A stretch of DNA of 39,050 nt from an uncultured Candidatus Saccharibacteria bacterium (GTDB lineage Bacteria > Patescibacteriota > Minisyncoccia > Minisyncoccales > GWA2-38-27): contig CAYYDH010000001.1 of the NCBI GenBank assembly GCA_964470615.1, forward strand, positions 1 to 39,050, given 5' to 3'. Positions 19,187 to 36,907 of this stretch are shown in pieces. Both the position numbers and the translations under genes were made by a program. The notes below the pieces were generated by a model that did no database searches, had not been told where the DNA came from, and saw only the letters and a program-made list of their open reading frames with translations. Every line of letters begins with the position of its first letter. The first letter of the stretch is position 1.

Positions 19187-19215
19187 TTGACATTCTCCGT
19201 TTTAGTAGTTAGAAT
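19187..19215 (+). promoter_or_regulatory. promoter in front of the first GC-rich gene
   Basis: aaTTTGACA context: TTGACA (19187..19192), a 17-nt spacer, then TAGAAT (19210..19215). Confidence 0.5.
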
Positions 19216-33197: not shown

Positions 33198-34370
33198 TTA
33201 AAGAAGAGATTTTTTCAGGAAAAGAATAAGACCGGCTGAAACAACTGCCAAGGGAATAGCAATTAAGAAAGGAAACCATTTTCTAGGGATATTAGTCGCC
33301 GCCGCAGCAACGGCGGCTGTTTCTTTTTCGCTGGAAAGGTCGATTACAAAAGTTTCGTCATTAGGAGAGGGCTTGGGAGTAACCTGTTTAGTTTCTTTTG
33401 TTGAAATAATGTTTAGGGCACCAGGAGTCAGTTTGCTGCTCCAAGTCCAACCTTTAGAAGTTAGATTATATGATTGACCTAGTGGGGCCTTTTCATAGGA
33501 AACAGCGTCTTTTTTCTCCTTGGATGGAGAGAAAAGATTCAAGCCGTCACCGTCATTGTTTAAAGTAATCTTTGTTTCAGGCCGTTTGAGCACTAAAAAA
33601 CCGTTTTGAGGAATCTTTGTTCCGGCAGGAAAGAGATAGGGAGTGGTTTTTCCCGTTGTATCTTCAATCTTCCAGTCGGATAAATCTATTTCAAATCCAT
33701 TTTGGTTATAGATTTCTATCCATTCTTCAGTTGTGTCAGAGCCTTCGGGTGAAGGAAGAATTTCATTGAAGACAACACCAGCAGGATAAGTTTCTTCTGG
33801 TATTACCTGCGGCGTTAACAGGGGTGATGGCGTGGTCAAAACCGGCACAGGAGTACTAGGTGAAGCTTGAGATCCAGAGCTGTTTCCGTTTTTAGGTGTA
33901 CCGCCTGGGCTTTGACTAGTTTGCCAAGCTGAAGCGATTCGTTCCATTGTTTGTTTCGTAGTATTATCACCAGCTGGCCAACTATCTGAAAAGTTTGTTT
34001 CATCAATTAAATTGCCAGAACTGTCAAACAGCTTCAAATCTTCTCCGTTGTTTCCTAGGGCGCCTTTGTAAATAAGGTCAGCTGCAACGTCGGGTACAGT
34101 AGTATCGTCGGTTCTTTCCAAAAGAAAGAATCCGTTTGCCGGGATGCCACCAACCAATTTTATTTCTGGTGTCCCATCGCTGGCTTTTAAAACCCAGTCG
34201 TCAAGGTTTATTACGCTTGAAGTGTTGTTATAAAGTTCGATCCATTCATCGTTAGCTGAGCTTATCGTTCCCATCCAGGCAATTTCATTAATGGTTACGT
34301 CAAAAAAAGCGCCTTGGCTGATAAGAGGCGCCGTTAAAGATAATAATATGAGGAAATATTTTAACATCAA
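33198..34370 (-). CDS. secreted protein with two lamin-tail domains and a C-terminal TM anchor
   Basis: Signal peptide, then two copies of the LTD signature (INEIAWMGT...DEWIELYN and FNEILPSPEG...EEWIEIYN). These are separated by a Pro/Thr/Ser linker. The C-terminal helix is FPFLIAIPLAVVSAGLILFL. Confidence 0.7.
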   Translation of the reverse strand: MMLKYFLILLSLTAPLISQGAFFDVTINEIAWMGTISSANDEWIELYNNTSSVINLDDWVLKASDGTPEIKLVGGIPANGFFLLERTDDTTVPDVAADLIYKGALGNNGEDLKLFDSSGNLIDETNFSDSWPAGDNTTKQTMERIASAWQTSQSPGGTPKNGNSSGSQASPSTPVPVLTTPSPLLTPQVIPEETYPAGVVFNEILPSPEGSDTTEEWIEIYNQNGFEIDLSDWKIEDTTGKTTPYLFPAGTKIPQNGFLVLKRPETKITLNNDGDGLNLFSPSKEKKDAVSYEKAPLGQSYNLTSKGWTWSSKLTPGALNIISTKETKQVTPKPSPNDETFVIDLSSEKETAAVAAAATNIPRKWFPFLIAIPLAVVSAGLILFLKKSLL

Positions 34371-35410
34371 AGCAAGGGCTCTTGGCGGTCTTTGAACTTA
34401 AAACCCAAATGCTGATAAGCAATTTTAGTCGCCACCCGGCCGCGGGGAGTCCTTTCAATAAAACCAAGCTGCATTAAATAGGGCTCATAGATATCCAGAA
34501 TGGTGTCTTCTTCTTCAGAGGTAGCTGCAGAAAGCGTTTGGAGTCCGACTGGTCCGCCATTAAACTTCTTTATAACCGCTTCTAAAATCTTTCGGTCTCC
34601 GGCTTCTAAACCCAATTCGTCAACTTCAAGAAAAGACAAGGCTTTTTCAGCCATTTCTTTGGTGATTACTCCTTTTCCTTCTACTTGGGCGAAATCTCGG
34701 GCGCGTTTTAATAAACGGTTTGCCACGCGAGGAGTAAAGCGGGAACATTTGGCGATTATTTCCAAGGCGTCAGGGTCAGATTTAATCCCTAGTAAGTCGC
34801 TGGAGCGTTGAAGGATTTTTCTAATGCTTTCTTCGTCGTAAAAGTTTAACTGGAAAGTAGCGCCAAAGCGTGATCTCAAAGGAGCGGAAAGCATGGCTAC
34901 TCTGGTAGTGGCGCCGACAAAAGTGAATCGAGGCAGTTTGATTTCCATTGTCCTAGCCATAGGACCTTGGCCTAGAATTAAACTAAGTCGGAAATCTTCT
35001 AGCGCCGGATAAAGGAACTCTTCAATCATTTTATTCATCGCATGGCATTCATCGCAGAACAAAACATCACCTTCGTTCAGGTTGGTTAGGACAGCAGCCA
35101 AATCACCAGTTTTTTTAATAGCCGGTCCTGTCGTTGTTCTCATGTTTGTTCCTAATTCCTTGGCAATAAGGTAGGAAAGAGACGTTTTGCCTAAGCCGCT
35201 GTTGCCGTAGAATAAAATATGTTCACAAAAAGGCTCGTTGCGCTTTTTGGCAGCATCGATAATGATCTTGAGGTTCTTTTTAAGCTTGTCTTGGCCGATG
35301 AATTCATTCCAAACGCGAGGCCTTAAAGTCAAATCAAGGCCTTGGTCCTCTTCGGTCGGTCTCGGTGTCAGGGGTGATTTTTTCCCATCAGGGGTTGACA
35401 AATTTTCCAT
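34367..35410 (-). CDS. ruvB: Holliday junction branch-migration helicase RuvB
   Basis: 347 aa with LRPRVWNEFIGQ, Walker A GNSGLGKTSL, Walker B LFCDECH and a C-terminal TPRGR. Confidence 0.97.
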   Translation of the reverse strand: MENLSTPDGKKSPLTPRPTEEDQGLDLTLRPRVWNEFIGQDKLKKNLKIIIDAAKKRNEPFCEHILFYGNSGLGKTSLSYLIAKELGTNMRTTTGPAIKKTGDLAAVLTNLNEGDVLFCDECHAMNKMIEEFLYPALEDFRLSLILGQGPMARTMEIKLPRFTFVGATTRVAMLSAPLRSRFGATFQLNFYDEESIRKILQRSSDLLGIKSDPDALEIIAKCSRFTPRVANRLLKRARDFAQVEGKGVITKEMAEKALSFLEVDELGLEAGDRKILEAVIKKFNGGPVGLQTLSAATSEEEDTILDIYEPYLMQLGFIERTPRGRVATKIAYQHLGFKFKDRQEPLL

Positions 35411-35423
35411 AATCTGCTACAAT
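35395..35423 (+). promoter_or_regulatory. near-consensus sigma70 promoter pointing into the ruvB-pilB spacer
   Basis: TTGACA (35395..35400), an exactly 17-nt spacer, then TACAAT (35418..35423). The spacer contains the ruvB start codon on the other strand (35410..35408). Confidence 0.6.
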
Positions 35424-35429
35424 TGGAGG

Positions 35430-35598
35430 TTATAGGATTAAACTTGAGGCTGGGGGGCTTGGAGTTTTCCGCAGATGGATGATTTGGCGCGAGCGAAGTC
35501 AATCCTCGGGGAGGTTCTAAACTTTTGTACCACTTAAGTTAGACCCCCCAGCCTCAAGCTTAATTATGACCGGCCTCGCCTTTTGGCGGGGCCTTTTT
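35430..35598 (+). ncRNA. unclassified small transcript of about 165 nt (cis-antisense RNA, or mRNA for a 20-aa peptide)
   Basis: It is bounded by the promoter above and a plus-oriented intrinsic terminator. A perfect 15-bp closing stem (CTTGAGGCTGGGGGG 35443..35457 with CCCCCCAGCCTCAAG 35544..35558) encloses 86 nt. There is no plus-strand protein gene for 1.3 kb downstream. Confidence 0.5.
35572..35598 (+). terminator. intrinsic terminator, plus-strand oriented
   Basis: GGCCUCGCC-UUUU-GGCGGGGCC (one G-U pair) followed by UUUUUAUU. On the minus strand the same hairpin has an A-C mismatch and no U-tract. Confidence 0.7.
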
Positions 35599-36907
35599 AT
35601 TCTTCACCTGTTACCCTGTCTATCTCTTCTACGGTAGTCACTCCTTCTAAGACCTTAATGTACCCATCCTGATGCATCAAAAGCATTCCTTTTTTAATTG
35701 CTAATTCTTTCATTGCTACGACTGAGGGGGAGGTTAAGATAAACTTTTCCATTTCATTGTCAACAATAAACGCCTCAAAAATACCGGTTCTTTCGTGATA
35801 GCCGGTAAAGTTACAGTCTTTGCAGCCCTTGGCTTTAGGAATCTTTATGCCAGGTTTCAAAGGCGGGATCTTAATTTTCTTTGAAAGACCCTTAAGCGCA
35901 CCTTTCAACTTCTCCAATTCTTCAGGCGTTATTTCTTTTTTAGCCCCGCACTTTTTACAGACCTTTCTGACTAATCTTTGAGCCAGTGCCATGTTTATGG
36001 CTGGAGATATATTAACTGGTTTTTCTCCTAGCGCTTGGAGCCTGGCGATTGTGCCGGCAGCGTCGTTAGTATGGACTGTGGATAAAACTAAGTGGCCGGT
36101 TAGAGCAGCCTGGAGAGAAATTTGAGCTGTTTCCAAATCTCTGACTTCGCCAACCAATATTACGTCTGGGTCTTGCCTGACAATTGCTCGAAGTCCGTTG
36201 GCAAACGTATAGCCTTTAGAATTATCCACTTGGGTTTGGGAAACTCCTTTCAAATGATACTCAATAGGGTCTTCAATGGTAATAACTTTTATCTCTGGCG
36301 ATTCGATTTCCTGTAAGAAAGCGTAAAGAGTCGTGGTTTTACCAGAACCAGTAGGACCGGTGGCAATAATCATTCCATTCGGCTTTTTTATTTCCTTCCT
36401 AAAAATTTCCATTAAGTCTGGCCGTAGACCTAGGTCATTCATCGTAACTACCCATTTCGGGTTTAAGATTCTGAGAACGATTGATTCTCCGTATTCTGCC
36501 GGCAGAACAGAGGTTCTGACTTCAATTGATACTCCCTCAATCAGAATAGAAAATCGGCCATCTTGCGATACGCGAGTTATATTCAACTTTATTTCCGAAA
36601 GCAGTTTTATTCTTGAGAGAAGAGATTTATATATCTTCAAATCAAAATACAGGATATCGTGCAAGACGCCGTCAATCCTTAATCTAAACTTTGCCTGTTC
36701 TTGCTCCGGCTCTATGTGGATATCTGACCCCTCAAGAAAAAAAGAACCCGTTAAAATTAATTCAACGAGGTCAGACGTTTTTTTCGTCATCCATTTTTCA
36801 ACTTTTTTCTTAAAGTCAGAGATGTTTCTTATCTCTTTCTTGACGTCCTTCACCAAAAGCGGCTGGATTTCTACTTCACCGGTTATTTTTTTTACTTCAT
36901 CTAGCAT
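35597..36907 (-). CDS. pilB: GspE/PilB-family secretion/type IV pilus assembly ATPase (short form)
   Basis: 436 aa with Walker A GPTGSGKTTT, Asp/His boxes and the tetra-Cys motif CKKCGAKK...CKDCNFTGY. Confidence 0.9.
   Translation of the reverse strand: MLDEVKKITGEVEIQPLLVKDVKKEIRNISDFKKKVEKWMTKKTSDLVELILTGSFFLEGSDIHIEPEQEQAKFRLRIDGVLHDILYFDLKIYKSLLSRIKLLSEIKLNITRVSQDGRFSILIEGVSIEVRTSVLPAEYGESIVLRILNPKWVVTMNDLGLRPDLMEIFRKEIKKPNGMIIATGPTGSGKTTTLYAFLQEIESPEIKVITIEDPIEYHLKGVSQTQVDNSKGYTFANGLRAIVRQDPDVILVGEVRDLETAQISLQAALTGHLVLSTVHTNDAAGTIARLQALGEKPVNISPAINMALAQRLVRKVCKKCGAKKEITPEELEKLKGALKGLSKKIKIPPLKPGIKIPKAKGCKDCNFTGYHERTGIFEAFIVDNEMEKFILTSPSVVAMKELAIKKGMLLMHQDGYIKVLEGVTTVEEIDRVTGEE

Follow-up and report, generated by a model that had tools for sequence, protein, structure and literature searches.

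6S RNA is a rod-like RNA in which regularly interrupted helices flank a central bubble, and the 5' strand of this bubble, about 8-13 nucleotides (nt) long, can serve as a template. It binds the sigma-70 holoenzyme and templates a product RNA. Among known RNAs it is the closest, in overall proportions, to the element described here. The element was found in a 39,050-nt stretch of DNA (contig CAYYDH010000001.1 of assembly GCA_964470615.1, positions 1 to 39,050; in the following, the window) from an uncultured bacterium that was deposited as Candidatus Saccharibacteria and is placed in the Minisyncoccales. It occupies positions 35395-35598 on the plus strand, between the minus-strand genes pilB and ruvB. 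Judged by comparison with related genomes, it is a stand-alone gene for a structured non-coding RNA of an uncatalogued family. The initial annotation had seen here a promoter-to-terminator unit on the plus strand, encoding either an unclassified structured RNA or a 20-residue micropeptide, and the first of these was borne out by the relatives.

The RNA gene in the window

The RNA gene spans the entire pilB-ruvB gap and overlaps both neighbouring genes. The predicted RNA has a core of about 130 nt (35436-35567), and the transcript would be about 170 nt long with its leader and an extra terminator; overall, the size of the RNA is put at about 135-170 nt. The following features were assigned.

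35395 to 35423, plus strand: RNA promoter, with the -35 hexamer TTGACA at 35395-35400, a 17-nt spacer and the -10 hexamer TACAAT at 35418-35423 (11 of 12 consensus matches)
35429 to 35435, plus strand: predicted transcription start (about 35429-35431, placed by its spacing from the -10 hexamer) and short 5' leader
35436 to 35457, plus strand: 5' strand of the closing helix P1, paired with 35544-35565
35458 to 35461, plus strand: 5' junction strand CUUG, 4 nt in the window copy
35462 to 35517, plus strand: long irregular arm, made up of P2, internal loop, P3 and tip
35462-35470 with 35509-35517, plus strand: helix P2, in which 8 of 9 pairs covary
35471-35479 with 35502-35508, plus strand: conserved internal loop, reading GC-AG-AU-G-GA on the 5' side and AU-CCUC-G on the 3' side
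35480-35485 with 35496-35501, plus strand: helix P3, followed by a G-G mismatch, 2 base pairs (bp) and a GCGA tetraloop at 35489-35492
35518 to 35543, plus strand: 3' junction with the small hairpin P4 (35520-35524 with 35536-35540)
35544 to 35565, plus strand: 3' strand of P1, paired with 35436-35457 and not directly followed by a U-tract in the window copy
35572 to 35598, plus strand: separate intrinsic terminator with a 9-bp stem (8 G-C pairs), a UUUU loop and a U5 tail at 35594-35598
35475 to 35537, plus strand: open reading frame (ORF) of 20 codons, MDDLARAKSILGEVLNFCTT, with GGAG 10 nt upstream; judged non-coding

The promoter, the ruvB start codon within its spacer, a perfect 15-bp stem, the terminator and the ORF were all present where the initial annotation had placed them. 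The unit was also richer in G+C than its surroundings, as had been noted (50% against 40% across the window), and the plus-strand RNA folded at -83.4 kcal/mol (z = -7.4 against dinucleotide shuffles). Lake-water metagenome DNA runs contained the window and confirmed its sequence at 3-5x depth, with no variants. In the same lake metagenomes (runs X1, X3, X5 and X6), other Parcubacteria contigs with a deeper coverage than the window genome matched positions 35449-35488. These contigs match the conserved RNA core only and then diverge, for example with an apical UUCG loop in place of GCGA, and several members of the RNA family therefore co-occur in one habitat.

Conservation and covariation

Eighty relative loci were gathered via RuvB similarity, the closest with 61-75% identity. 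They came from Patescibacteria metagenome-assembled genomes named Nealsonbacteria, Staskawiczbacteria, Parcubacteria and Paceibacterota, and from co-assemblies mislabelled 'Saccharibacteria'. Before any model was built, a blastn comparison of the unit with the 80 loci gave matches of 70-80% identity directly upstream of ruvB and on the opposite strand. The covariance model R1 was built from a seed of 22 homologues, including the window copy, and the seed alignment had compensatory changes in 29 of its 44 pairs. With R1, exactly one full-length match was obtained in the window and in each of 70 of the 80 loci (E <= 1e-7), always on the strand opposite to ruvB. The window copy itself scored 116 bits (E = 3.6e-25, model positions 1-133), a score that is partly by construction, the window being in the seed. 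A broader model, R2, added 7 loci and brought the count to 77 of 80; the remaining 3 have less than 110 nt upstream of ruvB, at contig ends.

The pair statistics and the promoter and terminator counts were taken from 71 sequences, the 70 loci and the window. Standard pairs made up 94.7% of the 3059 pair cells, compared with 79% in column shuffles, and 38 of the 44 pairs had changed on both sides, compared with 29.6 in the shuffles. The covariation score was 0.58 against 0.27 in shuffles, and it was at most 0.17 when the 3' partners were slid by 1-3 columns. The initial annotation had made the conservation of stem and promoter in relatives its own test. The stem is conserved, with compensatory changes as counted above, and an exact TTGACA-17-TAnAAT promoter stands at the homologous place in 66 of the 71 sequences. 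G-U pairs were more numerous than A-C pairs (213 against 56), and at one pair of helix P2, 36 sequences had G-C and 34 had G-U. Selection has therefore acted on the fold of the window plus strand.

Among the Minisyncoccales, R2 also detected the RNA beside ruvB, one case being the complete 655-kb chromosome OZ246399.1 (locus L089). A Harrisonbacteria genome gave a match as well, and two Azambacteria loci gave weaker ones. When the filters were switched off, further weak matches appeared in Azambacteria and Kaiserbacteria genomes. In controls from outside the candidate phyla radiation (CPR), which had been brought in by the same search, R2 did not find the RNA. On these matches the RNA family spans the Paceibacteria/Parcubacteria, with members of the Nealsonbacteria, Staskawiczbacteria, Minisyncoccales and Harrisonbacteria types. 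Taken together, the comparative data show a real, lineage-wide structured-RNA gene with a predicted strong promoter.

Promoter, leader and terminator

The match of the RNA promoter to the consensus is not rare by itself, since the window contains 3 promoters with at least 11 of 12 matches and 2.0 +/- 1.4 are expected in shuffles. Its significance comes from the conservation in relatives and not from the quality of the match in the window, and for this reason the case rests on the relatives. The promoter has an extended -10 element with TG at 35415-16 (TGc-TACAAT, 35415-35423), and such a TGn element is frequent among Staskawiczbacteria-type loci. The first ruvB codons lie beneath the promoter. 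The ruvB start codon (35410-35408 on the minus strand, CAT on the plus strand) forms nt 8-10 of the spacer, and CAT was found at spacer positions 8-10 in 23 Nealsonbacteria-type loci, in the same register as in the window. Read on the opposite strand, the -35 hexamer corresponds to ruvB codons 4-5 (Leu-Ser). Other near-consensus promoters in the window are TTGACA-17-TAGAAT at 19187-19215 on the plus strand and a perfect TTGACA-17-TATAAT at 377-349 on the minus strand.

In the relatives, the covariance model begins 3-45 nt past the -10 element. The leaders of the Staskawiczbacteria-type RNAs are long, with 20-45 nt, and a conserved (A/U)UAUUGA was observed in them 6-12 nt past the -10 element (L072:2943-2975 on the minus strand, L053 and L060).

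The terminator hairpin of the window copy reads GGCCTCGCC-TTTT-GGCGGGGCC at 35572-35593 and is followed by T5. An overlap of its U-tract with the pilB stop codon (35597-35599) had been described before and was confirmed, amounting to 2 nt. In 60 of the 71 sequences a U-tract directly follows P1, so that P1 itself is the terminator stem there. The window copy is among the other 11 and carries the separate hairpin instead, as do at least 2 more of these 11 (L014 and L031). An extra terminator-like hairpin was also found in a few relatives (L013, L014 and L031).

Architecture of the predicted RNA

The conserved fold has three parts, a nearly perfect closing helix of about 22 bp, a junction and an irregular arm of about 25 bp. 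In the window, P1 consists of 15 perfect bp (35443-35457 with 35544-35558), an A-C mismatch (35442/35559) and 6 outer pairs. Across the family it has a median length of 22 bp, its longest uninterrupted run has a median of 20 bp, and both partners have changed in 19 of 21 P1 pairs.

Within the arm, the internal loop contains the pairs A35473-U35506, G35474-C35505 and G35477-C35504 and a bulged AU. Its AG, GG and CCUC nucleotides are nearly invariant across the 71 sequences. The initial annotation had drawn the CCUC into a CCUC-GGG-GAGG hairpin, which has no place in the conserved fold: the CCUC pairs with the upstream AG..G, and GGGAGGUUC forms the 3' strand of P2. In the apical helix with P3, 7 of 9 pairs covary. 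The arm tip varies across the family and ends in a GNRA or UUCG-type loop (GCGA, GAGA, UUAG, UUCG, UCCG) or in an inserted hairpin. Hairpins of up to about 90 nt, which resemble expansion segments, were inserted exactly at the tip in L020:2735-2936, L022:2713-2909 and L003:2725-2867, and L022 has an additional hairpin at the 5' junction.

The junction is three-way in general and four-way in some lineages, which add a second 3' or 5' hairpin; overall it bears 1-3 small hairpins on either side. The 5' junction strand has 2-4 nt in the Nealsonbacteria type and 7-9 AU-rich nt in the Staskawiczbacteria type, with a family range of 2-21 nt. On the 3' side, close relatives conserve the junction sequence UUCUAAACUUU.GUUCCUAAA. 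In the P4 region of the window copy, at 35530-35532, 4 nt (UAAA) of the otherwise conserved GUUCCUAAA are missing. P4 is weakly supported in the Nealsonbacteria-type set and is a clear 7-8-bp hairpin with compensatory changes in the Staskawiczbacteria type. A -10-like UAAACU in the 3' junction was discarded, as it is not conserved across the family. Three known motifs were considered by eye and rejected: a kink-turn, for which the RNA has no tandem G-A pairs, an 11-nt GNRA receptor, whose CCUAAG-like and GAUGG-like pieces are not opposed, and a T-loop.

Search for known RNA families

A scan of the window with Rfam 15 at gathering scores gave no match, and ARAGORN detected no tRNA or transfer-messenger RNA (tmRNA) gene anywhere in it. 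When three diverse members (the window copy, L112 and L072) were searched against Rfam 15 at E <= 10, only inconsistent matches at chance level were obtained, to GcvB via the terminator and to microRNA precursors via the long hairpin. The initial failure to match the element to signal recognition particle (SRP) RNA, 6S RNA, tmRNA, RNase P RNA or a tRNA was thus reproduced at the level of families with Rfam 15 and ARAGORN. Riboswitches, ribozymes, RNase P, Y RNA and the listed small RNAs gave no match to their Rfam 15 covariance models. A 5S rRNA was rejected by the wrong order of arms and the lack of a model match, and an rRNA fragment by the lack of a local match to the large or small subunit rRNA. 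In the literature searched on RNAs of the CPR, Patescibacteria, Parcubacteria and Paceibacteria, we found no description of this RNA. It is for the RNA family, which is absent from Rfam, that novelty is claimed.

Neighbouring genes and linkage

The two genes that flank the RNA gene are the following.

34367 to 35410, minus strand: ruvB (347 amino acid residues; RuvB_N, AAA_lid_4 and RuvB_C domains), divergent from the RNA gene
35597 to 36907, minus strand: gene for a pilB-type (T2SSE family) ATPase, convergent and tail-to-tail with the RNA gene

The loci that were gathered via RuvB are syntenic, in the order tsaE, pilB, the RNA on the opposite strand, ruvB and a lamin-tail-domain (LTD) gene. 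A second search was anchored in the RNA with the pattern TTCTAAACTTT-N1-3-GTTCCTAA. It returned 42 stretches, 12 of them with the RNA and all of CPR origin. pilB was tail-to-tail with the RNA in 11 of the 11 RNA-anchored loci that have enough flank and is its most constant neighbour. ruvB was not adjacent in 5 of the 12 loci. An LTD gene takes its slot in L261 (4319-6520) and L234 (3221-5306) and a ComEA-like HHH_3 gene in L265 (1261-2880) and L275 (2466-3733), followed by yebC in all four; the fifth locus, L246, is too short for the next gene to be read. In L261, for example, the start of the replacement gene again abuts the RNA promoter. The RNA is thus locked to pilB and, with ruvB absent next to it in these 5 of 12 loci, is not specific to ruvB. 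By its gene content, the combination of pilB, an LTD or ComEA-like gene and yebC looks like a DNA-uptake and recombination cluster.

In the window, ruvB has no recognisable Shine-Dalgarno sequence, and the sequence ahead of it is ...AACCUCCAAUUGUAGCAGAUU-AUG. In 63 of the 71 loci, the stretch from the last 230 nt of pilB to the start of ruvB contained no ruvB-sense promoter with at least 10 of 12 matches. Lacking a good promoter of its own there, ruvB may rely on read-through across the RNA gene.

A predicted protein-binding RNA

The best reading of these data, to which we give a probability of roughly 0.45, is that the gene encodes an RNA that binds protein, is stable and abundant, and belongs to a new family spanning the Paceibacteria. 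The consensus sigma-70-type promoter would drive the predicted RNA, which would be made in large amounts and be metabolically stable. The RNA would act in trans as a binder of protein, either as the scaffold of a ribonucleoprotein (RNP) or as a sequestering partner. It would be recognised at the conserved internal loop, at the junction and at the top of P1, which is rich in G/C. The arm tip and the additional hairpins of the junction would be decoration that the RNA can do without. The long and perfect P1 duplex, with its two turns, would probably be processed by RNase III or bound by a protein for double-stranded RNA (dsRNA).

A protein-binding role in trans is suggested for several reasons. 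Conservation is concentrated in the internal loop, at the junction and at the top of P1, with a periphery that expands and contracts, both ends are protected inside P1, and the fold of one strand only is selected. In addition, the RNA is kept when its upstream neighbour changes, and no base-pairing target stands out among the 51 window genes. When the unpaired 3' junction and the leader were tested with RNAduplex against the 51 translation-initiation regions of the window, there was no outlier except the cis complement at ruvB. The pattern of an invariant internal loop, variable apical loops and expansion hairpins at tip and junction resembles that of an RNP RNA.

Several observations weigh against this assignment. 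Its partner protein is hypothetical. A perfect duplex of 20-22 bp is unusual among the known stable RNP RNAs, whose stems are interrupted. The linkage to pilB is unbroken and that to ruvB usual, and the function could be local, in cis, after all. None of the public RNA runs contains the window RNA sequence, no transcript was seen, and the RNA runs for the relative L072 gave nothing on the RNA. For L089 (1322-1556), one 235-nt contig with a depth of 2.2 was obtained from a wastewater run labelled 'RNA-Seq'. Of the RNA gene it takes in the promoter and the 113 nt at the 5' end, and of ruvB the first 55 nt. Because it spans the promoter, this contig is either DNA carry-over or a ruvB-sense transcript through the RNA gene, and not the predicted RNA. 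Other RNA runs for L089 matched conserved pieces of ruvB only.

Alternative explanations

A role of the layout itself has to be considered alongside protein binding. The strong RNA promoter would compete or collide with ruvB-LTD transcription, which would be a secondary consequence of the layout and not the reason for the fold. With an RNA gene that overlaps both of its neighbours, it is plausible that competition between promoters, or collision with the transcription of pilB-ruvB-LTD, is a further role and possibly the main one.

Taken as the whole explanation, a cis-acting regulator of the minus-strand pilB-ruvB-LTD unit, working by antisense or promoter interference, is possible and in our estimate unlikely. 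It could act by head-on collision or by promoter occlusion at the ruvB start, by forming a duplex with the read-through mRNA that is then cleaved by RNase III, or by using P1 as a two-way terminator after pilB. The geometry speaks for it. The RNA gene exactly fills the gap and overlaps both genes, the tail-to-tail arrangement with pilB is constant, and the layout is kept where an LTD or ComEA-like gene replaces ruvB and its start again abuts the RNA promoter. The lone RNA-Seq contig over L089 crosses the promoter, as expected of a ruvB-sense transcript, and the shortage of ruvB-sense promoters makes a cis-antisense role possible. Nevertheless, read-through is not proven, as AT-rich -10-like hexamers in the RNA leader could give a weak ruvB promoter.

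The initial annotation had described the RNA as antisense to the pilB-ruvB spacer and to the initiation region of ruvB. It is indeed complementary to most of the spacer (35430-35596). The ruvB ribosome-binding region and the start codon, in contrast, are left uncovered (35411-35429), because these 19 nt lie beneath the -10 element and the spacer of the RNA's own promoter; the RNA start lies upstream of the ruvB ATG, at a distance of about 20 nt. As the RNA persists where ruvB is not adjacent, a cis-antisense role cannot be specific to ruvB. Nor can it explain the conserved multi-helix fold, which antisense pairing does not need, complementarity being automatic. The excess of G-U over A-C pairs points to selection on the fold of the RNA strand only, and the internal-loop nucleotides are invariant over the whole class. 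A riboswitch that controls antisense read-through into pilB was rejected, since P1 is far too stable to switch.

It is doubtful, and clearly less probable than regulation in cis, that the RNA is a subunit or regulator of a Paceibacteria-specific RNP serving the DNA-uptake and recombination cluster. The cluster would then comprise the PilB-type ATPase, a ComEA-like or lamin-tail DNA-binding protein, RuvB and YebC, and the perfect duplex, with its conserved sequence, and the junction would be read by a cluster protein or by a dsRNA-binding partner. If this were true, the RNA would be a bacterial housekeeping RNA of a kind without known counterpart.

We hold it equally doubtful that the RNA is a functional analogue of 6S RNA that mimics an open promoter and sequesters the RNA polymerase holoenzyme. 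In such a mimic, P1 would take the place of the downstream DNA and the 25-bp arm that of the upstream DNA, with the junction as the bubble. The proportions fit this mapping, the junction being flanked by a closing helix of about 22 bp and by an arm that amounts to about 25 bp. A hairpin sits on the 3' junction side, as in many 6S RNAs, and the 5' junction side of the Staskawiczbacteria type is 7-9 nt long and U-rich. Moreover, the gene has a consensus promoter, is apparently single-copy and lineage-wide, and no 6S gene was found in the 39-kb window that was searched. On the other hand, neither RF00013 nor any other 6S model (RF01685) matched the three diverse members even at E <= 10. The 5' junction strand of 4 nt in the window, 2-4 nt in close relatives and 2-21 nt in the family is too short and variable for a template. 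P1 has a median of 20 pairs without interruption and forms a perfect A-form duplex that lacks the regular bulges of 6S stems, and the junction can carry its extra hairpins on either side.

That the RNA is a highly diverged SRP (4.5S) RNA is very improbable. In favour of this reading, the sizes are similar, the RNA has its ends paired in a G/C-rich helix and a long hairpin with two internal loops, and no SRP RNA was detected in the 39-kb window. Against this, neither RF00169 nor RF01854 matched the three diverse members at E <= 10, and the defining features exclude the identity. The apical loop is not the conserved GNAR but a GNRA or UUCG-type loop or an additional hairpin that can reach about 90 nt, so that the tip is expandable; the AGCA/GGAA signature and loops of helix 8 are absent; and the extra junction hairpins are without counterpart in bacterial SRP RNA. 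The internal loop of this RNA is AG..GG/CCUC, which differs from the Ffh-binding features of SRP RNA.

Just as improbable are a gene for a small protein or type I toxin, a mobile inverted repeat and a plain terminator without an RNA product of its own: the GGAG ahead of the ORF, the perfect 15-bp inverted repeat and the Us behind P1 would suit them respectively, but the ORF start is lost in 38 of the 71 homologues, there is one copy per locus, the conserved consensus promoter is directed into the element, and the inner helices covary, which a terminator does not need. The ATG of the ORF is the bulge of the conserved internal loop and is retained in 33 of the 71. The frames encode 3-30 residues with early stops, the indels are not multiples of 3 (including an 11-nt insertion), and the substitutions follow base pairing and not codons. 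The micropeptide of the initial annotation was accordingly given up, although the ORF and its GGAG exist. One copy was present in the 39-kb window and one at the same syntenic position in each locus, in more than 90 genomes. The pattern of the 15-nt inverted-repeat arm, scanned over all genomes, gave only chance matches, in GC-rich bacteria. So far, nothing in these sequences points to a miniature inverted-repeat transposable element or another dispersed repeat.

Significance

The Paceibacteria (Parcubacteria) are the largest class of the CPR. Their genomes are well under 1 Mb, with about 0.65 Mb in one complete relative, and such small genomes keep little that is dispensable. The RNA is likely to be important to these cells, because it is near-universal in the same position, has a perfect or near-perfect promoter and shows compensatory changes. 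If it is a new stable RNP RNA, it is one more of the very few housekeeping RNAs of bacteria that occur throughout a lineage. If it is a missing 6S-type or other regulator, it offers a first handle on global regulation in organisms with few recognisable regulators. In practice, it can serve as an annotation marker for a spacer that current pipelines leave empty.

Comparison with known RNAs

6S RNA (ssrS; RF00013, RF01685) is likewise a single-copy, strongly promoted, stand-alone RNA of 130-200 nt. Both have their 5' and 3' ends paired in a long closing helix, and in both a second long irregular helix lies beyond a junction or bubble whose 3' side bears a hairpin. In contrast to 6S RNA, the RNA described here has no covariance-model match, a perfect closing helix that is not regularly bulged and a varying number of junction hairpins. 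Of the two, 6S RNA is the one with established binding of RNA polymerase and a product RNA.

With SRP RNA (4.5S, ffs; RF00169, RF01854) it has in common the size, the G/C-rich paired termini and an arm with two conserved internal loops. It differs in having neither the GNAR tetraloop nor the symmetric and asymmetric loops of helix 8, and in its variable and expandable arm tip.

Like cis-encoded antisense RNAs in operon spacers and competence riboregulators such as RocR of Legionella, the RNA lies opposite a co-oriented gene pair, here in a putative DNA-uptake and recombination cluster. Should read-through occur, the geometry would make a local regulatory effect unavoidable. RocR and the listed antisense RNAs are not homologous to it, and a trans target was not detected for it. 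Its tertiary-type architecture and its invariant loop nucleotides exceed what antisense pairing needs.

The orphan RNAs OLE, raiA, GOLLD and ROOL are unrelated to it in sequence and structure, with no model match, and this RNA is smaller and is found in CPR Paceibacteria only. What it shares with them is the discovery by comparative analysis, the strong covariation and an occurrence that is restricted to a lineage yet universal there.

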